42,288 nucleotides of DNA from a virus. Its lineage: Duplodnaviria; Caudoviricetes. The notes under the pieces were generated by a model. It searched no databases and was not told the DNA's origin. It saw only the letters and a program-made list of their open reading frames with translations. Of the stretch, positions 2,178 to 33,782 are shown piece after piece (within the stretch, counting starts at the first letter, position 1; each line of letters starts with the position of its first letter). Position numbers and translations under genes: made by a program. The DNA lies in IMG/VR virus record IMGVR_UViG_3300046707_000144, positions 1-42,288 of that record; one strand, written 5' to 3'.

Positions 2178-4073
2178 TTATTCAGGATCGGGACGCGTAA
2201 CGAGCCAGATCCCGCCCTGTAGTTCGCGCAACTCCCCCGATGCGCGCATGTCCGCGATGGCCTGCAATGCAGCCGCTTTCGCAGCGCCCGCGGCGAACAC
2301 AACTTCATTCCCCGTCATGGGACGGACAGCGTTTTCCAGCACCGCGCGGACCTTTTGCAGGGGCGTAAGTTTTCCGGGGCGCTTTGCCGCGATCTGTTCG
2401 GGCTTGGGGCGCGTGACTTCCGCCAGCTCTGCCGTTGCCAAGTCCAGGCGCACGCGGAACGTGGGGCGCTCGCCACCAAGCCGATTCTTGGCTACCTCGA
2501 TGTCAAAGTCTGCAGTCGCCTCTGTGAACGGAACGCGCGTCATGCCAAGGAGCACACTTGCTCCGTATTCGATGGCGCTCGATTCCTTGCTCGCACCTAG
2601 CGCGCTGGTCTTTTCCCCCGTGTACCCACCGCGATTCATCTCCGACAGTGCGACCACCACCGCACCGCGTTGGGCGATGCGCTTGCAGACCAGCACTACC
2701 GCGTCCATGCGTTCGCGGGGCTTGTCGAAGGCCTGCGCCGCCGCGCAGCGCACGGTTTGCAGACTGTCCACGATCAAGATCCCGCCCGGTCCCCCGCGCG
2801 CCTCGTGCAGGCATTCCGCCGCATCTTCTAGGGTGAGACTGGCCAGGTCCGGATCCATCACAACGAACCGGTGGCCGCGCATGCGGTCCACAAAGCCCGC
2901 GCGTGTGGCCTCGCCAATGTCTGAATCCTCCTCTAGCCCCTCGCGGTGAAAGCCGAACATCTGGCCAATGCGCATGGCGATCCCGCTCGCAGGCTCATCG
3001 GCTGCGAGGTACAGCACGGTTTCCGCCTGCCACTCGAACGTGCGCGCAAGGTTGACTGCGAGCGTGGTTTTCGCCGCACCTGGCGCGCCACTAACGACGA
3101 TGAAGCGCCCGCGAGGAAAGCCCCCGCGCGTGCACCTATCAAGCTCGGGGAAGCCCGTTGTTAGACGGGGGCCTAGTGGACGCAGCAGATCGGGGATCGC
3201 GTCTGCAAGAAGGCGCCAGCGTGGTTCGGGTGGGGCGGTGACGCGCGCTAGCTCGGTACGCATGGCTTCCGCGAACGTGTCCGGGTTGCGGATGTAGAGC
3301 GAGCTAGGATCCTTGGCGGTACCGGGGCAGTGGAATGTGATCACCTCCCCTTCAAAGCCGATTTCCGCGAGGTGCGCGCGCGTGAGCTGGACGAACTTCT
3401 CCCCCGCGCTGTCAGTCTCCTGGACGATGAGAAGGCGCGCGAGCCCCCGCACGTGTTCGAGCCGCAAGATGCTTGCGCTTGTCGCGCCTGGAATGCCAAT
3501 GGCTGGAAACCCCGCATAGAGCAGGGTCCACACGTCCGATTCACCCTCAACAACGAACGCGTACCCCTCCGCGTCTGCAAGCGCCCCGCGGTCCGGCATG
3601 TATGGGATCAGGCTGTCACCCGGTCCCCACGATGAGCCTTCTTTCGCGACCAATGCCGAGCGGTACCGCGTCCTATGCGCCGCCCCCTCGCGGGTGGGAT
3701 AGGGGATCTCGACTCGTGAACCCCATCCACCCGTTGCCGTGGTGCAGTGAAAGCCCGCGAGGAATGATGCGGGGATATGCTTGTGCGCCGCGAGATCTTC
3801 CAAGGTGAGGTAACGCGGTTCGTTGCGTTTGAGCTGCACAACGTCCGCGCCGCGCGGGGGTTCGGTGAAAAGGTCAGTCATGCGGACCCCGAGCTTTTCC
3901 GCGACTGACTCCGCAGTGCAGCCCGCGAAGCAGTGCAGCAAGATCCCCCGCTCGCTTGTGGTCACGCTTAGCGAGGGGCCGCGATCGTCGTGGGCTGGAC
4001 ATTGTGCGAGGTAGCCCCGTGCGTTCTTACGAACGCGCTTCAATCGTTCCAGAACCAGATCGATCGTCACCAT
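2178..4073 (-). CDS. Bifunctional DNA primase-helicase (CHC2 Zn finger, Toprim, DnaB-like helicase, C-terminal winged helix)
   Basis: CPAHDD..PSL and HCFAGC Zn finger; VVEGESD Toprim; GAPGAAKT Walker A; LIVDSLQ Walker B; VAKNR; GAGG RBS before ATG 4073. Confidence 0.9.
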   Translation of the reverse strand: MVTIDLVLERLKRVRKNARGYLAQCPAHDDRGPSLSVTTSERGILLHCFAGCTAESVAEKLGVRMTDLFTEPPRGADVVQLKRNEPRYLTLEDLAAHKHIPASFLAGFHCTTATGGWGSRVEIPYPTREGAAHRTRYRSALVAKEGSSWGPGDSLIPYMPDRGALADAEGYAFVVEGESDVWTLLYAGFPAIGIPGATSASILRLEHVRGLARLLIVQETDSAGEKFVQLTRAHLAEIGFEGEVITFHCPGTAKDPSSLYIRNPDTFAEAMRTELARVTAPPEPRWRLLADAIPDLLRPLGPRLTTGFPELDRCTRGGFPRGRFIVVSGAPGAAKTTLAVNLARTFEWQAETVLYLAADEPASGIAMRIGQMFGFHREGLEEDSDIGEATRAGFVDRMRGHRFVVMDPDLASLTLEDAAECLHEARGGPGGILIVDSLQTVRCAAAQAFDKPRERMDAVVLVCKRIAQRGAVVVALSEMNRGGYTGEKTSALGASKESSAIEYGASVLLGMTRVPFTEATADFDIEVAKNRLGGERPTFRVRLDLATAELAEVTRPKPEQIAAKRPGKLTPLQKVRAVLENAVRPMTGNEVVFAAGAAKAAALQAIADMRASGELRELQGGIWLVTRPDPE

Positions 4074-8906: not shown

Positions 8907-9119
8907 ATGGAACGAGCCATCAATAAAGAGGAACTGTGGCTGCACACGAAACAGGCCGCAGAGTTTCTCGGGATCACGCAAGGGGCGCTTAGACACCATG
9001 TCGCGCGCGGGAACATCGTTCCCGATCACCGCGCGCGCCGCGGTGGCGGCATGCAAAGCAATCAGTTTTCGCTCGCTACTTTGCGCGCGTTTCGGAGCGG
9101 CCAACATGCACACGCCTAG
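8907..9119 (+). CDS. xis: Excisionase-like HTH protein
   Basis: WLHTKQAAEFLGITQGALRHHVARG; directly upstream of the integrase; start could be 8883. Confidence 0.75.
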   Translation: MERAINKEELWLHTKQAAEFLGITQGALRHHVARGNIVPDHRARRGGGMQSNQFSLATLRAFRSGQHAHA

Positions 9120-10404
9120 CGTGTTCGATCTGAAAAAGATCGGGCTCGATAAGAAAAGCGGATTGCTGCGGTACAGTGCGCGCATCGTTGTCACGGACGA
9201 TGTCACGAAAAAGCGCATCGTGGATACGATAGCGTCCAAGATCCTGGCCAACTCGATTCAGGAAGCCCGCGAGGGGGCGGCCAAGATCGCGGCGCAGAAG
9301 TGCCAGGCGATCGCTGGCGTCGCCACCGACCCCACCACTCGCGGGCAAGCCGTGACGGTTGCTGCAGCGTGGGACGCGTGGACTGACACAGTGAAGCGCG
9401 CGGGCTCGCGCCGCACCTATCGGTCGATAGGCCGATCCCGAGTAAAGCCGGACATGGGGCAGCAATCGCTGCATGCGGTTACGTCCGCGCAGTGGGGCGC
9501 ATGGCTCGAACGCTTGCGCAAGTCGACACGCATCAACTACGCGAACGGCATTCGCAGTGCGATCCAATCGCTTTACGCATGGGCGATCAAAAACCAGATT
9601 GGGCGCGTCACCGCGAACCCGATCAACGAATCGAACGCATTCGGCGCACGCCTCAAAGTGGACGATCCCGAAGCGCTTCGGAAGCGACTCAAGGCGGCGC
9701 GCGAAGATGCGTCACGCAAGCACCTCGAACCGGAGGAACTTGCGCGCATGCTCGCGGTGTATCAGCGCACGTTCCCGCAAACCTATCTGCTGTGGATCAT
9801 TCTGTGCTGCTCCGCGGTGCGCTTTGCGGAGGCGTGCGTGCTGGAGCGGGACGCGTTCGATTTCAAGAATCCCAAGTTGCCCCGGTTGCACGTCTACCAA
9901 ACCTTGAGCGCTGGCGAGTTGGCACCACCCAAGGGGAACGTAGACCGCTGGATCGATCTCCCGCCGCTACTCGTCCCGCTCATTCGCGCACACATCGCAA
10001 AGCAGCGCGGCGCGACGCAAGCCTATGGCGGCGAGCCGCACACGTTCCTGTTTCCGCGGCTGCAATCCTCGCGGGGCTCAAACGTCCCCGTGGTCAGCTA
10101 CGACACCCTCCACCGACACGTCACGGAAAGCAAAGCCAAGGCAGGCGTGGCAACGGCCAACGCCACGCACCTTGCGCGGCACACCGCGGCCCTACTGCTC
10201 TCCACGCTTCCGGGAAGCGCCGCCCAGCGCCAGCTAGGGCACGCGACGCTAGAGCAGACCCTAGCCTACGGAGCGAACCCCAAGGGGCTTGTGGGGCAAG
10301 CGATGGAGAAGAGCATGGGCGCACTACTTCCCACGGGTGACGTGATCCCCATTTCCGCGGCCAGTGGGAGATTTTATGGGAGATCCGGCAAATCTGGCCG
10401 GTGA
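9106..10404 (+). CDS. int: Tyrosine integrase
   Basis: Catalytic R (AVRFAE), K (PPKG), HLARH, LGH and Y (TLAY); GGAG RBS. Confidence 0.92.
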   Translation: MHTPSVFDLKKIGLDKKSGLLRYSARIVVTDDVTKKRIVDTIASKILANSIQEAREGAAKIAAQKCQAIAGVATDPTTRGQAVTVAAAWDAWTDTVKRAGSRRTYRSIGRSRVKPDMGQQSLHAVTSAQWGAWLERLRKSTRINYANGIRSAIQSLYAWAIKNQIGRVTANPINESNAFGARLKVDDPEALRKRLKAAREDASRKHLEPEELARMLAVYQRTFPQTYLLWIILCCSAVRFAEACVLERDAFDFKNPKLPRLHVYQTLSAGELAPPKGNVDRWIDLPPLLVPLIRAHIAKQRGATQAYGGEPHTFLFPRLQSSRGSNVPVVSYDTLHRHVTESKAKAGVATANATHLARHTAALLLSTLPGSAAQRQLGHATLEQTLAYGANPKGLVGQAMEKSMGALLPTGDVIPISAASGRFYGRSGKSGR

Positions 10405-10616
10405 GACCCCGCTTTTTACGGCGTTTTTGGGGTGCTGACCCCTACATCGGTGAAAATGCCGAACTCACGCGGACGCGGACAATCTAGGAACGCAAAGGGG
10501 CGTTTGGGGCTTGCAAACAAGGGGTTTCGACAAAACGGGCCATTGTTCCAGTGTGACCCCCAAAAGCCCGCAAAATCCCACTGAGAAACCCGCCCAGTGG
10601 GAGATCCCAGTGGGAG
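10361..10616. other. Putative attP region with integrase arm-type repeats
   Basis: CCAGTGGGAGAT at 10361 and 10594, CCAGTGGGAG at 10607, partial TGGGAGAT at 10377, inverted ATCCCACTG at 10575, flanking a non-coding centre. Confidence 0.7.
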
Positions 10617-10662
10617 TTTTTTCCTCCCACGCGCGGGGGTGTCCAGGCCTTGGGACGCCTCG

Positions 10663-10854
10663 CTAAAGGCATCGGCAACGTCCCCCCGCCAGCTCTAGCG
10701 CCGCGCCGCCATCCGGGCATTGCAGCTGCGAGCACACCAGCCGAGGCGCTTCCCTCGCGGGCGGTGGACCGATCGAAAAGGTGTGCGTCACGGTCAAGGT
10801 GCAGGCGCCCGCGAGGAGTAGCAGCCAGCCGAGCGCGCTACCCCTCAAGCGCAC
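10663..10854 (-). CDS. Small Cys-rich putative lipoprotein
   Basis: Basic N-terminus, hydrophobic stretch, LAGAC lipobox-like motif, four further Cys. Confidence 0.55.
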   Translation of the reverse strand: MRLRGSALGWLLLLAGACTLTVTHTFSIGPPPAREAPRLVCSQLQCPDGGAALELAGGRCRCL

Positions 10855-11311
10855 GCCGCACCGCCCGGGCCCGGGCTGCCCCTAGCTCCGCAACGCGCTC
10901 CGCATCGGACCACGTCCCGGTGTCCCGGACGTCGAGCAACGCGGTGATCTGCGGTGGCAAAAGGTTGTTATCTCGTGGGCGGCCAATGGTCACTAGTCCC
11001 GCACCTGGCGGTAGGGCGGTCCCGTGGATCGTGGTCCCAAGGTGCGCGTCAACTTCGGGGACCGCTGGCAGCTCTAGAGCAGCCTGGCCACCCACCACGA
11101 TCGCGGGCTGGATCGTGTCGGTAGTGAGCACGGGGAAACCGTGCGTGGCTGGATCGTGCACCGTGCCCGACACGTCTACCCCATCTTTGAAGATGCGGCA
11201 CTGTCGCGGCGTAGGGTTGCCCGCGGAGTCGCGCAAGCCGTTGGCTTGGTCGAGTGCAACGCGGATGGCTTCGAGCTGTGGCGCGGGGGCAACGTGGTAT
11301 CGCTTGGTCAT
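10838..11311 (-). CDS. Hypothetical protein (tail-associated position)
   Basis: ATGA-coupled to the upstream repeat protein. Confidence 0.7.
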   Translation of the reverse strand: MTKRYHVAPAPQLEAIRVALDQANGLRDSAGNPTPRQCRIFKDGVDVSGTVHDPATHGFPVLTTDTIQPAIVVGGQAALELPAVPEVDAHLGTTIHGTALPPGAGLVTIGRPRDNNLLPPQITALLDVRDTGTWSDAERVAELGAARARAVRRALEG

Positions 11312-13934: not shown

Positions 13935-15206
13935 CTAATTCTCCTGGTTCTGGACCGCTTCGAGCTGACCCCGAACGCGCGTCGCATACTCGGGGTGCAT
14001 CATTTGCATTTGGTAGTTGATCGATTTGATGCGGTCCTGATCGCCACTCGACACCGCGGCGGTTAGGCGCGCTTCATCCTCCGGAGGGAGTCCGGTGTTG
14101 CCGCCATGCAGCACGCTCTCTAGCGCCCACGTCATGGCCGCATCGTTCGAGGGGACTTGCGCCCGCTCACTCACGGCGGACGCTGCAGACTGTCCAGCCC
14201 AACGCAGGCCACCGCTTACGATGGGCGCGGTACGCGCTGCGATCGCTGGCGCATGCGCGAGCATGGCGCCCGAAATGTTCTTTGCGCCCCCCGCACCAAG
14301 CGCGCCCAGTGCCGCGCCCGTTTTCCAGTCGCCGCCCGCGGCTTTCGTCACGAGTCCGCCCGCGACTGCACCGCCCAAGCCCCGCTTGGCAACATCGCCC
14401 AAACCACCCAAAGCGCCGCTTTCTGCAGCGGGCGCGGGCTTGAGTCCGCTAAGCCACTTGGACGCCACCGCATCGTCAACGGTGCCCAACACCGCGGCAT
14501 CGTCCGCGCGTTGCGCTGCAGCCTGGCTAGTGGGCGCGAGCCAATCGGGAAGGTACCCCTTTACAGCGCGCGCCGCATCGTCAGAGTACCCGCCGACAAC
14601 GCCCACCGCATCGTCAACCGAGCTGGCCGCGGGCTTGAGTGCAGACCCAAGCGCGCCGAGTCCGGACGTGACACCCTTGGCAAGCCCCGCACCCGCGCCA
14701 CTCATGAGCGCGCCGATTCCGCCACTCTGCAAGCGCTCCTTGATCCCGCCCTCATTCAGAAGCGCGCCAGACAGTCCGCCAACCGCAGCTTGGCCCGCGA
14801 GGGTAGAGCCCCCGAGATACGCCGCGGGGACTGCCATCGTCACGTTGCCAGCGAGCTTCGCCCCGCGCGTGCTCATCGTGTCTGGAATCGAGTCAATGAA
14901 GCCCTTGCCCGCAACGGTGGCACCCTCGGGACGTGCATACTCCGTGTGGTCTGCAGCCCAGTTGCCTAGGCGCTCCCCGAGCCTGGAATGCGTCGGGGAT
15001 AGCCCGCGAGCGTAGGAGACTAGGACATCCTCCCATGACGCTTCGGGGCTGGACGCGTCATCCTCTTCTGTCAGCGCTTGCAGCTGATACCTATCGTCCC
15101 CATTCGCGGGAGTCTGATCACCGGACTCAGCGGGAGGCGTCGGGTTTTCCGCCGGGGTTTCCCCATCCTCCGAAAGTACGGGCAACGCGAATCGGTCCTT
15201 AGACAT
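13935..15206 (-). CDS. Putative internal virion/ejection protein, Gly/Ala-rich with hydrophobic segments
   Basis: Position after the tail nozzle; helical low-complexity composition. Confidence 0.65.
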   Translation of the reverse strand: MSKDRFALPVLSEDGETPAENPTPPAESGDQTPANGDDRYQLQALTEEDDASSPEASWEDVLVSYARGLSPTHSRLGERLGNWAADHTEYARPEGATVAGKGFIDSIPDTMSTRGAKLAGNVTMAVPAAYLGGSTLAGQAAVGGLSGALLNEGGIKERLQSGGIGALMSGAGAGLAKGVTSGLGALGSALKPAASSVDDAVGVVGGYSDDAARAVKGYLPDWLAPTSQAAAQRADDAAVLGTVDDAVASKWLSGLKPAPAAESGALGGLGDVAKRGLGGAVAGGLVTKAAGGDWKTGAALGALGAGGAKNISGAMLAHAPAIAARTAPIVSGGLRWAGQSAASAVSERAQVPSNDAAMTWALESVLHGGNTGLPPEDEARLTAAVSSGDQDRIKSINYQMQMMHPEYATRVRGQLEAVQNQEN

Positions 15207-15209
15207 GAC

Positions 15210-16724
15210 CTATTCCCCGATCCCTTTGTAGTACTTCCGCAAGGTCTCGACGCGGCCCGCGTACGCGCTGGAAAGCTTGTTTAGCCAGCGCGTGAGAGTC
15301 TTCGGACTCTTGCCGAACCCTTGTCCCGTTTCGTTATAGATGCGCTGCATTTCCTGGTTTGATACAGACGCGCCGGACCGATCCTTGATGATTACGTTCT
15401 GCAGCGCCGCGAGCGCGGCCACCGCGTTCTGTGCTTTCGGGTTGCCCGCAAGGGCGGTGTTTCGGATCATGCCTCCGAAGTTGTTCCCGGACATGGAATC
15501 GGGAAGGTTGACGATGAGCGCCTTCTCAGTCGGCGTGAGTGAGCCCCACGCACTGATCGCCTCATTCAGCGATTGGTGCTGACTCTTCATCCACGTTTCT
15601 TCTTTCACCCGATCGTCAACGTTCGTCCCCTGTACAGAAGCGCTCTTACCGGGCGCATCCTGGTTTGTGGCTTCCGCTCGACTCGTCCCGAGCATTTCGC
15701 CCACAAGCTTTTTAGGGTCTCGACGCGCCGCGAGTTGCGCCGCGGCAAGTGACTGCTTTGCGATTTGCAGCGCTTGCGGATCCACCGTGGACTCGTCCAG
15801 CGTCCCGGTGCGCAACGCGGTAGCCATCTCAGCAGTGAACGGTTTCCCGCCGACACCGCTTGCCTTGATCGCCACAGTCTGATCGATCGCGTTTTCAAGC
15901 TCCGCTTTCGCGTCGCCACCAAGCCCCGCGCCGCCACCGCTCCCGCTTTTCTTGCGGTGGTCTACCGAGTACCGGCGATCCGCGCTGGTTTGCGCGGCAA
16001 TGTCGCGACGCAGGCCAAATTCATCCTCCCACTTCCGCCCCATCATCTCGCGGGTCAAGTCGCGATCTTTGTCCCGTTCCTCAAACTCACGCTCCCGGAG
16101 CTGCATGGACCCAAGGTTGTTGAGCATGCCAACCGCCTGCGAATCCTTGCGCATGTTCGCGGCTACCTCGGGATCGATCCCAAGGTATTGGTGCAAAAGC
16201 TCCGCGGTTGCCTGATCGACATACCCGTGCTTGTCCGCCTGCTCCGCGTCTCGCATGAGTGCGGACGCTAGGTTGTCGTCATAGCCCCGCTGCGCGCGCC
16301 CCGCGTCCGTAGTACCGCCCGAAATGCCCGCACCAATCGCCCCAAGCCACTTGTGCAGGTTGCTTGGACGATCCCCGTGTGCCTTGCGGAATGCGCTCTC
16401 ATACATGCCGGGTTCTGCAGACGCGGGACCTTTGCCCCTCGCGGCAATCACCTCCGTAATGCGTGCGCGCGCCGCAGCCTTTGCCGCTTCAGTCGCCCCC
16501 TCCGCTTCCATCTTCGCGGTTTCGTCCGCGATCAGCGCATCAACTTCACTCTCGGGGCTATCGATTGCGGTGGCTTCCGGTTGTGGACCATTCGCAGGAT
16601 CCAGCAAGTCGAGATCGGAGATCTCACCCGCTGGCGCTGCGCTACCGGAGATCTCGATCGGTTCGATCGTGGCCGGCTCGCCCAACAACTCGCGATAGAC
16701 ATCGTCATCGTTGGGGCGCTTCAT
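15210..16724 (-). CDS. Putative internal virion/ejection protein
   Basis: Helical, charged; SGASVSNQE motif near the C-terminus as seen in podophage ejection proteins. Confidence 0.65.
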   Translation of the reverse strand: MKRPNDDDVYRELLGEPATIEPIEISGSAAPAGEISDLDLLDPANGPQPEATAIDSPESEVDALIADETAKMEAEGATEAAKAAARARITEVIAARGKGPASAEPGMYESAFRKAHGDRPSNLHKWLGAIGAGISGGTTDAGRAQRGYDDNLASALMRDAEQADKHGYVDQATAELLHQYLGIDPEVAANMRKDSQAVGMLNNLGSMQLREREFEERDKDRDLTREMMGRKWEDEFGLRRDIAAQTSADRRYSVDHRKKSGSGGGAGLGGDAKAELENAIDQTVAIKASGVGGKPFTAEMATALRTGTLDESTVDPQALQIAKQSLAAAQLAARRDPKKLVGEMLGTSRAEATNQDAPGKSASVQGTNVDDRVKEETWMKSQHQSLNEAISAWGSLTPTEKALIVNLPDSMSGNNFGGMIRNTALAGNPKAQNAVAALAALQNVIIKDRSGASVSNQEMQRIYNETGQGFGKSPKTLTRWLNKLSSAYAGRVETLRKYYKGIGE

Positions 16725-32384: not shown

Positions 32385-32834
32385 ATGACCGACTGGGAAG
32401 CGGTGATCCGGGACTGCACGCCGCGCACCGCGTGGACGCGCCACCCGTACCGGATCGACATACCCACCGCGATCATGTTCGGCACGTTCATACGGCAAGA
32501 GCCCCGCCACCCACTGCGCGCGATAGTAACTCTCGATCTCATGGACGAGTGGAATGCGGGAACGTGGCTGCATGTCAGCGTGTCCCGGTCCAACCGCCTT
32601 CCCACGTGGGCGGATCTCGTGCTCACGCGTGAGGAAATGGGCTATGGCGATCGTCTGTTTGTGCAGCTTTTGCCGCCCAAATCGCACTGGCTGAACGTGG
32701 CTGGTTTCTGCCTGCACCTGTTTCACCGCGTCGACGCGGAAACCGTGCCGCGGATCCTGTGGGACCAAGAAGGCTGCGACGGGACTGCGTACCGCAAGCC
32801 CGGGACTCTGGACGGCAAGGGGCAAGTGCGATGA
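32385..32834 (+). CDS. Conserved phage protein (WxHVSVS...PTW...CLHL family)
   Basis: WLHVSVSRSNRLPTW, QLLPP..WLN, CLHLF. Confidence 0.75.
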   Translation: MTDWEAVIRDCTPRTAWTRHPYRIDIPTAIMFGTFIRQEPRHPLRAIVTLDLMDEWNAGTWLHVSVSRSNRLPTWADLVLTREEMGYGDRLFVQLLPPKSHWLNVAGFCLHLFHRVDAETVPRILWDQEGCDGTAYRKPGTLDGKGQVR

Positions 32835-33160
32835 GTGAGATCAAGGATGCGATGCGCGAACTGCAGTCGTGTCCCGGCGCGTACGCGGCACTCAAGATGG
32901 CGGTACGCGCGGCTGGCGTGCGTCCTGAGTTCGGGGATTTGGTCGCTGAGACCACCCTAGCCAACATCCAGTTTATGGCCGCGTCGGGGGTTCCCTTGCG
33001 CGCGATCACGCAAGCCGTGGAGGCTGAGTATGCGCGAGCCCGAATCGACAAGCTCAAACACGAGCGACGCGAACGCGGACTCTCCGATCCGCCAGTGCAC
33101 CCACGTACGGAGGCGGACGCTTCCGGTGTTCGAGACGATTCGGATCGAGACGCTGACTAA
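32831..33160 (+). CDS. Small helical protein, paralog family
   Basis: ATGA coupling; MAASGVPLRAITQAVEAEY. Confidence 0.7.
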   Translation: MSEIKDAMRELQSCPGAYAALKMAVRAAGVRPEFGDLVAETTLANIQFMAASGVPLRAITQAVEAEYARARIDKLKHERRERGLSDPPVHPRTEADASGVRDDSDRDAD

Positions 33161-33241: not shown

Positions 33242-33314
33242 GGGGGGATCGTCTAAGAGGTAAAGACCCGGGCTCTATATCCCGGTAATGCGGGTTCGAC
33301 GCCCGCTCCCTCCA
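33242..33314 (+). tRNA. Atypical tRNA: Ala identity acceptor stem with 8-nt anticodon loop CUCUAUAU
   Basis: Acceptor GGGGGGA/TCCCTCC plus A73, U8, D arm GTCT-AAGAGGTAA-AGAC, anticodon arm CCGGG-CTCTATAT-CCCGG, variable loop TAAT, T arm GCGGG-TTCGACG-CCCGC, followed by CCG. Confidence 0.85.
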
Positions 33315-33325
33315 CCGGAGGCGAC

Positions 33326-33580
33326 ATGGACTTTCACGAATACGAGGAATCAGTCCAGCGCGGCAAAGACGCGGTGGACGTGTGCATACGCTTTTTTCTC
33401 TGGGCGCGTGTGCACATGCCGAATGTGGATGAAGAAACGATCTCGATCGCGGGACTGCTCATTGCGTCGGAAAGCGCAGTGCTGGCAGGGATTGACGTAG
33501 ACACGTTCGAGCGTGGCGCGTCCCAAAGCTTTGCGCAGGCCAGACGGAGACACAATGAACCCCCCGACATCCCCGCTTGA
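33326..33580 (+). CDS. Small helical protein, paralog family
   Basis: GGAGG RBS; AGLLIASESAVLAGIDVDTFERGASQSF. Confidence 0.75.
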   Translation: MDFHEYEESVQRGKDAVDVCIRFFLWARVHMPNVDEETISIAGLLIASESAVLAGIDVDTFERGASQSFAQARRRHNEPPDIPA

Positions 33581-33782
33581 ACCAGGAGACCTAGTCCAGG
33601 GCAACCCCGATGCGTATCGATGGGGACCGGTGGTGATCGTGGTGCAAGAAGTCAGGCCGTGGGGCGTGAAAGGCTATTTCATCACCCACGACAACGCAGG
33701 CGGGGTTTGTCACGCATACGTGCGCGTGCTGCACGGGGAGTATCAGCGCGTTGGACGCGCGGAATGGTGGGACCGAGAATGA
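33555..33782 (+). CDS. Small beta-barrel (SH3-like) hypothetical protein
   Basis: LEPGDLVQ..P...VVQEVRPWGVKGY. Confidence 0.7.
   Translation: MNPPTSPLEPGDLVQGNPDAYRWGPVVIVVQEVRPWGVKGYFITHDNAGGVCHAYVRVLHGEYQRVGRAEWWDRE

Follow-up and report, generated by a model that had tools for sequence, protein, structure and literature searches.

In this study we describe a phage tRNA gene that, judged by its sequence, is real, selected and irregular and specifies an alanine identity, which places it among the known tRNAs whose identity and anticodon disagree. The window analysed is a whole virus genome of 42,288 bases with direct terminal repeats and about 62% G+C, and this gene is its sole tRNA according to ARAGORN and Rfam. 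Three explanations are commonly given for phage tRNAs, namely supplementation, the replacement of cleaved host tRNAs and the suppression of stop codons in recoded genomes; a conserved tRNA that combines an alanine acceptor with a loop for AUA or UAG, in a genome needing neither, lies outside all three of these explanations. Our preferred reading, which we offer tentatively as possible rather than probable, is that the tRNA is charged with alanine and reads the rare isoleucine codon AUA through UAU in the mRNA of the host or of rivals.

The PHROGs matches in the phage include primase/helicase, RecE- and Erf-like genes, a tyrosine integrase (8998-10404), a major head protein and a terminase, and because of this gene set, the integrase included, the phage is likely temperate. 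The runs containing it derive from soil and rhizosphere metagenomes, and no host was found (0 of 127 candidates when the terminase profile was searched in the genome collection). A short motif, CCAGTGGGAG(A), was seen by eye three times at the end of the integrase gene and after it (10340-10620), and these repeats are possibly arm-type binding sites of attP; no attP tRNA remnant was seen by eye at 10340-10900. The tRNA gene sits in a cluster of small ORFs on the + strand. No + strand sigma-70 promoter was detected upstream of it at the scan threshold, and function searches with the two small ORFs downstream gave no lead. The gene and its surroundings are as follows, L077 being a locus of a related phage that contains a homologous tRNA.

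32385..32834, + strand: DUF7694 gene; in L077 its homologue (103 of 145 aligned residues identical) immediately precedes the tRNA
32831..33160, + strand: ORF of 109 amino acids without a family match, missing between the same genes in L077
33242..33314, + strand: tRNA gene from G1 to the discriminator A73, with CCA incompletely encoded (CCG at 33315-33317)
33242..33248, + strand: 5' strand of the acceptor stem, with G3 at 33244
33251..33267, + strand: D arm of 4 bp (33251-54/33264-67), with a 9-nt loop containing G18 and G19 and with U20 instead of G20
33268..33285, + strand: anticodon arm of five G-C pairs (33268-72/33281-85) abutting the D stem, loop at 33273-33280
33286..33306, + strand: variable loop (4 nt) and T arm (5 bp, 7-nt loop TTCGACG)
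33307..33314, + strand: 3' strand of the acceptor stem (33307-33313, with U70 at 33311) and A73 (33314)
33317..33321, + strand: GGAGG, overlapping tRNA position 76 and, to judge from its sequence, the likely ribosome-binding site of the next gene
33326..33782, + strand: two small ORFs (33326-33580 and 33555-33782), found 3' of the tRNA in the window and in L077
11308..31350, - strand: block of virion and packaging genes (terminase, major head protein), 17 genes with zero ATA codons

The initial annotation had described a cloverleaf with G3.U70, A73, GG in the D loop, a TTCG T loop, no unpaired base 26 and a CCG end, and each of these elements is present in the sequence. The acceptor pairs are G1-C72, G2-C71, G3.U70 (33244/33311) and G4-C69, and the anticodon stem starts right after the D stem, leaving no base 26. 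The 8-nt anticodon loop, CTCTATAT (33273-80), contains CUA at 33275-77 and UAU at 33276-78. At the 3' end, the G of CCG is also the first base of the next gene's GGAGG, and the homologue encodes CCA. Among the 92 distinct ARAGORN tRNAs in the loci, the D-arm motif recurs only in one tRNA-Glu and one irregular tRNA; a ranking of the nearest tRNAs among the loci is biased by how these were collected and was left out of the argument.

Both search programs call the gene a tRNA, as the annotation had expected: ARAGORN labels it tRNA-??? (ctat), and its Rfam RF00005 match scores 41.6 bits (E 1.3e-5), above the gathering score of 29. The cloverleaf is also the minimum-energy fold (z -2.1, with 4 of 200 shuffles equally stable), and the five anticodon-stem pairs have pair probabilities of at least 0.93. 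The length of the loop was confirmed in the contigs of other runs. In 6 of the 8 runs compared (of 11 found), a contig covers the loop with no variant letter, whereas runs X2 and X8 do not cover it; full bridging, with at least 31 letters on each side, was seen in X1, X5 (depth 2.4) and X6 (depth 3.6), where X1 may be the source of the record; the studies behind the runs date from the same year, sampled the same habitat and possibly belong to a single campaign. These concordant contigs rule out an assembly error as the origin of the 8-nt loop.

A metagenome scan that specified the anticodon end and the T loop and left the acceptor free returned 55 matches. We kept the 28 (23 distinct) whose 7-bp acceptor closes and whose T stem has at least four pairs; among the 27 dropped are three genes of the compact type with a single acceptor mismatch, a tRNA-Pyl and an initiator-like tRNA. 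The sole kept match with the same body as the window tRNA is L077:542-617, which has a 9-nt D loop, no base 26, the identical five anticodon-stem pairs, G3.U70, A73, an encoded CCA and an 8-nt anticodon loop, CTCTATAC. This tRNA starts about 10 bases after the upstream stop and is flanked by homologues of the window tRNA's neighbours. The two tRNAs are identical at 65 of 76 positions, compared with 42 of 79 four-fold sites in the two flanking genes (Fisher 1.3e-5; 53% identity at silent sites), and the 8-nt loop keeps 7 of its 8 bases (P about 0.05 against silent-site identity). Between them, pair 7-66 is changed on both sides and pair 51-63 on one; pair 10-25 does not form in L077, whose C25 could instead pair with the first base of the variable loop, and 41 of the 42 pair cells are standard. 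Because the tRNA is more conserved than the flanking silent sites and its odd traits are kept, its anatomy is selected rather than a product of drift, and the comparison supports a tRNA gene with alanine identity under selection. Thus, the anticipated homologue with a conserved G3.U70 exists and keeps A73 and the 8-nt loop as well; an argument from covariation was set aside, as two sequences cannot show it and shuffles reach their score in 235 of 500 cases.

This conservation bears on two further explanations. A decaying pseudogene of an ordinary tRNA would be in keeping with the lone irregular tRNAs of other soil phages (L063 and L135) and with the lack of the gene in two related phages, but the same irregularities have been kept across diverged silent sites and nearly all pairs are standard, and such decay is highly improbable. 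A tRNA-shaped processing signal, at which RNase P and RNase Z would cut the operon transcript so that the next gene receives a fresh 5' end, would account for the short distance between the L077 tRNA and the upstream stop, for the ribosome-binding site directly 3' in both phages and for the loss of the encoded CCA in the window. However, G3.U70 and the anticodon loop are kept and neither is required for processing, which makes a pure processing role improbable.

Beyond these two members, the searches were negative. In the viral collection, the exact loop with the T arm gave 2 matches, neither a homologue; the D arm with CTCTA gave 12, no tRNA among them; the D-stem end and T arm with a free anticodon arm gave 0; and the anticodon-end pattern gave 7, none with the body of the phage tRNA. 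The tRNA pattern search of the genome collection returned 0 matches, BLAST of the phage tRNA against phages, plasmids and E. coli yielded T-arm scraps or nothing, and model R1, built from the window and L077 tRNAs, recovered only those two members over 24 records and 99 sources. The gene is also absent from 13 phage records, several of them fragments, that were reached via terminase or DUF7694 homology. Because pattern scans demand an exact match, variants with other loops may be missed, and the apparent fixation of the anticodon rests on the window and L077, two sequences that cannot prove it.

AlaRS ignores the anticodon. Its bacterial determinants are G3.U70, G2-C71, G4-C69, A73 and also G20 (PMC9976931, Table 1). 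Both phage tRNAs carry the entire acceptor set, G3.U70, A73, G2-C71 and G4-C69, and have U (window) or A (L077) in place of G20; the 'complete' alanine identity first claimed therefore stands for the acceptor stem and fails at this position of the bacterial set. The anticodon NGC in a 7-nt loop, a trait of bacterial tRNA-Ala, is absent from the phage tRNA. On these features, the tRNA is likely charged with alanine by the host AlaRS. E. coli IleRS charges UAU tRNAs poorly (PMC3575796), and therefore isoleucine is unlikely to compete for it.

The structure fits two registers, UAU (codon AUA) or CUA (UAG), and decides neither alone. In the UAU register the anticodon occupies loop bases 4-6 and is followed by A37, a purine, and a pyrimidine, and base 33 becomes C rather than the near-universal U33. 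The 4-nt variable loop presumably marks a tRNA-Glu-type body, in which ungapped numbering would make UAU the anticodon; the D-arm motif matched a tRNA-Glu. Two 8-nt loops are known to read the triplet at loop bases 4-6, that of the yeast mt-tRNA-Thr, UUUUAGGU (PMC3113583), and that of SufJ (PMC4238358), and both keep U33.

In the CUA register the anticodon occupies loop bases 3-5 after U33, with C32.A38, and the stable fold still has 8 nt. This is the basis for regarding the tRNA as a weak alanine-inserting amber suppressor, with U37 and the eighth base unpaired on the 3' side, that would allow low-rate UAG read-through in host or phage. Because U33 directly precedes CUA, the U-turn rule favours this register. 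With base 26 missing, the D and anticodon stems would form 9 helix layers instead of 10, and the count along the 3' strand would set CUA at the usual height. Two genuine pyl operons (L088 and L105, near pylS-, pylB- and pylC-like genes, one of them with a TAG-split MtmB gene) have a tRNA-Pyl with the 7-nt loop CUCUAUA and U37, and SufA6 carries its extra base 3' of position 37 (PMC3617221), a register that corresponds to the CUA-type reading here. At the one loop position where the two phage tRNAs differ (U or C), either base is able to pair with G31. Adopting the bulged 7-nt form would take 6.5 kcal/mol for the window tRNA and 3.9 for that of L077. Alanine-identity CUA tRNAs also appear to be a recurring design, as 22 of the 23 distinct closed cloverleaves from the scan without a specified acceptor carry G3.U70 and A73, although the scan pattern itself set the CUA loop and the likeness is therefore partly circular.

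The TAG usage of the phage speaks against this suppressor. When TAG-open frames of the window were compared with 23 stretches of related records, none of the 100 alignments spans a TAG in a coding frame, and those that hold one are antisense or off-frame shadows; the single exception extends beyond the start of a gene in the upstream direction. Opening TAG moves the ORF cover of the late block only from 0.83 (code 11) to 0.85; in four phages with ordinary-bodied alanine CUA tRNAs it increases by at least 0.18 in 8 of 9 stretches. The in-frame TAG in late genes that is typical of a TAG-recoded phage is not seen, and recoding of TAG was rejected given the conserved genes without in-frame TAG and the flat late-block cover, as was recoding of TGA, so that the phage uses the standard code; the earlier suggestion of UAG suppression is thus refuted in its genome-wide form. 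TAG is the stop of 14 of 58 candidate ORFs and ends 4 of the 17 virion-block genes, so the phage does not avoid it as a stop, and long in-frame continuations are no clearer after TAG (4 of 14) than after TAA (4 of 16). Two virion-block genes, 15210-16724 and 13935-15206 (- strand), are in frame across TAG plus one codon, so that read-through would fuse both; a programmed fusion was rejected, since in-frame neighbours follow TAA too and no fused homologue was seen. An amber suppressor also leaves the missing AUA of the virion genes unexplained, and we consider it rather unlikely, though a close rival of AUA misreading.

AUA usage leans the other way. None of the 280 Ile codons in the 17 virion-block genes is ATA, which is the only sense codon missing there (after it, the rarest are TTA with 4, TGT with 6 and AGA with 8), and it makes up 10 of 144 Ile codons in 15 other genes of the window. 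In the late genes of the two closest relatives, which lack the tRNA, the counts are 2 of 182 and 7 of 253, 6 of those 7 sitting in one ORF without a detected counterpart in the window; the difference from the virion block has a Fisher P of 0.014 for the pooled relatives and 0.15 against G001 alone. Nine control phage blocks, chosen automatically and not all confirmed as virion genes, contain 38 ATA in 1435, with zero in none, against 0 of 220 for the window's block. A beta-binomial fit puts the chance of zero ATA at 0.03-0.04; scaling to the use of A-ending codons gives 0.001-0.003, and the chance is roughly estimated at 0.06-0.25 if the clade's own rate of 0.5-1% is taken as the null, ATA being one of two codons examined. 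Because the relatives without the tRNA also use AUA rarely, the signal is modest, and the genome evidence leans modestly to AUA over UAG.

Other readings of AUA that the initial annotation had raised found no counterpart in the genes. The flanking genes of the tRNA carry four ATA codons, and homologues at the three checked have mostly I, L, V or M. As these positions include those of the DUF7694 gene, AUA is not reassigned in the phage's own genes, and reassignment to alanine was rejected (the terminase has no ATA). An 8-nt anticodon loop, such as the phage tRNA has, is a trait of +1 frameshift suppressors, and in the sufD pattern the inserted base lies on the 5' side of the anticodon (PMC4238358), so that a natural suppressor with the four-base anticodon CUAU acting on AUA-G was considered. 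However, the virion block is free of ATA, and although 13 of 28 ATA codons precede G in the 41 candidate ORFs outside it, no +1 frame joining the next gene was seen and, as judged from frame lengths, none of these ORFs needs such a shift. Quadruplet reading of AUAG was accordingly not borne out, and we regard it as most improbable.

If the preferred reading, an alanine-charged tRNA misreading AUA, is correct, the tRNA would be transcribed together with the flanking + strand genes, trimmed at its 3' end, completed with CCA, charged by the host AlaRS via its acceptor stem and delivered to the ribosome by EF-Tu. There, a 3'-stacked reading would use loop bases 4-6 as the anticodon, with the extra base on its 5' side, and alanine would be inserted at some AUA codons, causing a low-level, codon-selective mistranslation that is heaviest in AUA-rich genes. 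In a presumed G+C-rich host, AUA would be concentrated in acquired A+T-rich genes, such as those of defence islands and rival elements, and the AUA-free virion genes of the phage would escape. That the tRNA is a codon-selective mistranslation weapon against host defence genes and rival elements, and that the phage purged AUA from its virion genes for immunity, is a more doubtful extension. Several observations count against AUA reading. The ATA codons in the flanking genes imply that the tRNA would strike its own operon, only two members of the tRNA type were found, and six allo-tRNA(UAU) bodies were inactive as suppressors (PMC5389517). On B. subtilis ribosomes unmodified UAU can favour AUA over AUG (PMC3919564), which is a point for AUA reading; on E. 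coli ribosomes UAU fails to distinguish them (PMC3575796). Misreading of AUG is a real objection, with 143 ATG in the virion block, and such misreading is weak on the former ribosomes but not on the latter.

Alternatively, the tRNA may be a charged mimic that does not decode, its odd loop barring it from the ribosome, and may serve as bait for anticodon nucleases or tRNA-modifying toxins or as a sink for AlaRS or EF-Tu. The anticodon arm is one helix layer short and neither register fits cleanly, and irregular soil tRNAs that are charged but not translating have been reported near toxin-antitoxin genes (PMC5389517). The compact alanine CUA elements discussed below likewise precede intact ORFs with no TAG to read. 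Phage tRNAs countering tRNA-cleaving defences have been reported (for example, PMC11464382), but in the available part of that literature they substitute for the cleaved host tRNA rather than act as bait. In addition, the loop of the phage tRNA is nearly fixed (7 of 8 bases, as above) and no partner gene was identified around it, and we judge a decoy to be fairly unlikely, on a par with the amber suppressor and likewise a close rival of the preferred reading.

If AUA misreading is true, the tRNA would be a case of a virus that uses deliberate mistranslation and protects itself by avoiding the codon. Whichever reading holds, it offers a natural test of which anticodon the ribosome chooses in an 8-nt loop without base 26. 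In the literature searched, which includes few subscription papers, no report of a phage tRNA with G3.U70 and an 8-nt loop was found; the type may be among the irregular 7/5 tRNAs in the supplements of PMC5389517.

The loci yielded other irregular tRNA-like genes. A related phage (L063:5403-5477, G002) has a lone irregular tRNA-like gene with a CAU loop preceded by C33, a bulged acceptor and no G3.U70, about 2.5 kb upstream of the terminase and below the Rfam threshold, and L135:1498-1573 (- strand, G004) is a lone phage tRNA with an AAA anticodon and G73. L082:306-384 combines an initiator-like body with an 8-nt loop, GCTCTATA, in an apparent tRNA cluster, and may represent an amber initiator or else an error in the sequence. 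An acceptor-like stem with a T arm and no D or anticodon arm was seen by eye in an A+T-rich phage of 169 kb (L001, about 2975-3031, - strand), possibly a minihelix or part of a two-piece RNA. At L078:3977-4135 (the same in L087 and L101), a compact alanine CUA element directly precedes a Glu-type body that is irregular, with UAC in its loop and a degenerate T loop, so that the two form an irregular tRNA pair.

The compact elements (21 distinct) resemble the phage tRNA in G3.U70, A73 and the anticodon end GGG-CUCUA-N-A-UCC, but have a tiny D arm and a 7-nt loop with a stem bulge, neither of which the phage tRNA has. Model R1 scores the compact class at about 27-42 bits, no higher than ordinary tRNAs, against 103-106 for its two members; membership of the phage tRNA in this class was therefore rejected on anatomy and scores. 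In seven loci (L054, L066, L072, L081, L089, L096 and L112) a compact gene immediately precedes an intact IS1-type DDE transposase ORF, and three more (L067, L074 and L097) are included by likeness; of the 30 loci scanned, 7 gave the Pfam match to this transposase, and the ORF contains no TAG. Other compact genes stand before an HExxH peptidase-like ORF (L055, L057, L073 and L115) or a small ORF (L068 and L091). A compact CUA gene with its transposase may form a tRNA-headed insertion element; no paper on such elements, or on compact alanine CUA elements, was found in the literature searched.

The tRNA-Pyl genes of L088 and L105 share with the phage tRNA an anticodon end in which GGG/CCC closes CUCUAUA, but have G3-C70, G73, a compact D arm and pyl neighbours, none of which applies to the phage tRNA. 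G73 is a general feature of tRNA-Pyl and was also observed in L088. M. barkeri tRNA-Pyl lacks G19, and A37 is named an identity element for it (PMC7609411); both loci have U37 instead. The phage tRNA has A73, G18 and G19, and no pylS, pylB, pylC or pylD was found among 61 ORFs (PHROGs) and 30 ORFs (Pfam) of the phage window, in agreement with the initial view that it lacks tRNA-Pyl hallmarks.

The amber suppressor tRNAs of TAG-recoded phages (10.1101/2021.08.26.457843) are likewise phage tRNAs, and CUA is a possible anticodon here too; they have a 7-nt loop with A37 and serve genomes with TAG as a sense codon, whereas the phage genome has no sense TAG. Ordinary-bodied CUA tRNAs with G3.U70 and A73 were found at L018/L019:1470-1545, L029:1471-1545, L048:1470-1545, L053:1471-1545 and L049, and four of these phages look TAG-recoded by ORF cover. 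The alanine-identity forms L018, L029, L048 and L053 share G3.U70 and A73 with the phage tRNA, U70 and A73 having been prescribed by the pattern that found all five.

Yeast mitochondrial tRNA-Thr(UAG), SufJ and SufA6 keep base 26, unlike the phage tRNA. Their 8-nt loops still decode a triplet, as that of the phage tRNA would, but the first serves a full codon reassignment, the other two are laboratory mutants, and all keep U33 (PMC3113583, PMC4238358, PMC3617221). An 8-nt-loop tRNA of unknown use has also been described in an algal mitochondrion (PMC4824035). The tRNA-ProX of Streptomyces and Kitasatospora (PMC10404621, PMC11415595) likewise occurs naturally and would deliberately mistranslate a sense codon; it has a proline identity, is chromosomal and adjoins a ProRS isoform, whereas the phage tRNA has an alanine identity, is phage-borne and has no synthetase gene near it among the ORFs scanned (PHROGs, Pfam).

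Finally, the allo-tRNAs (PMC5389517) are alike in that the identity set disagrees with the anticodon and in their soil origin; their G3:U70 amber variants insert alanine, and UAU is the commonest anticodon of the irregular ones. Their acceptor/T stems are 8/4 or 9/3 and their variable arm is long, in contrast to the 7/5 stems, 4-nt variable loop and missing base 26 of the phage tRNA, and the distinction from allo-tRNAs drawn at the outset is thus upheld.
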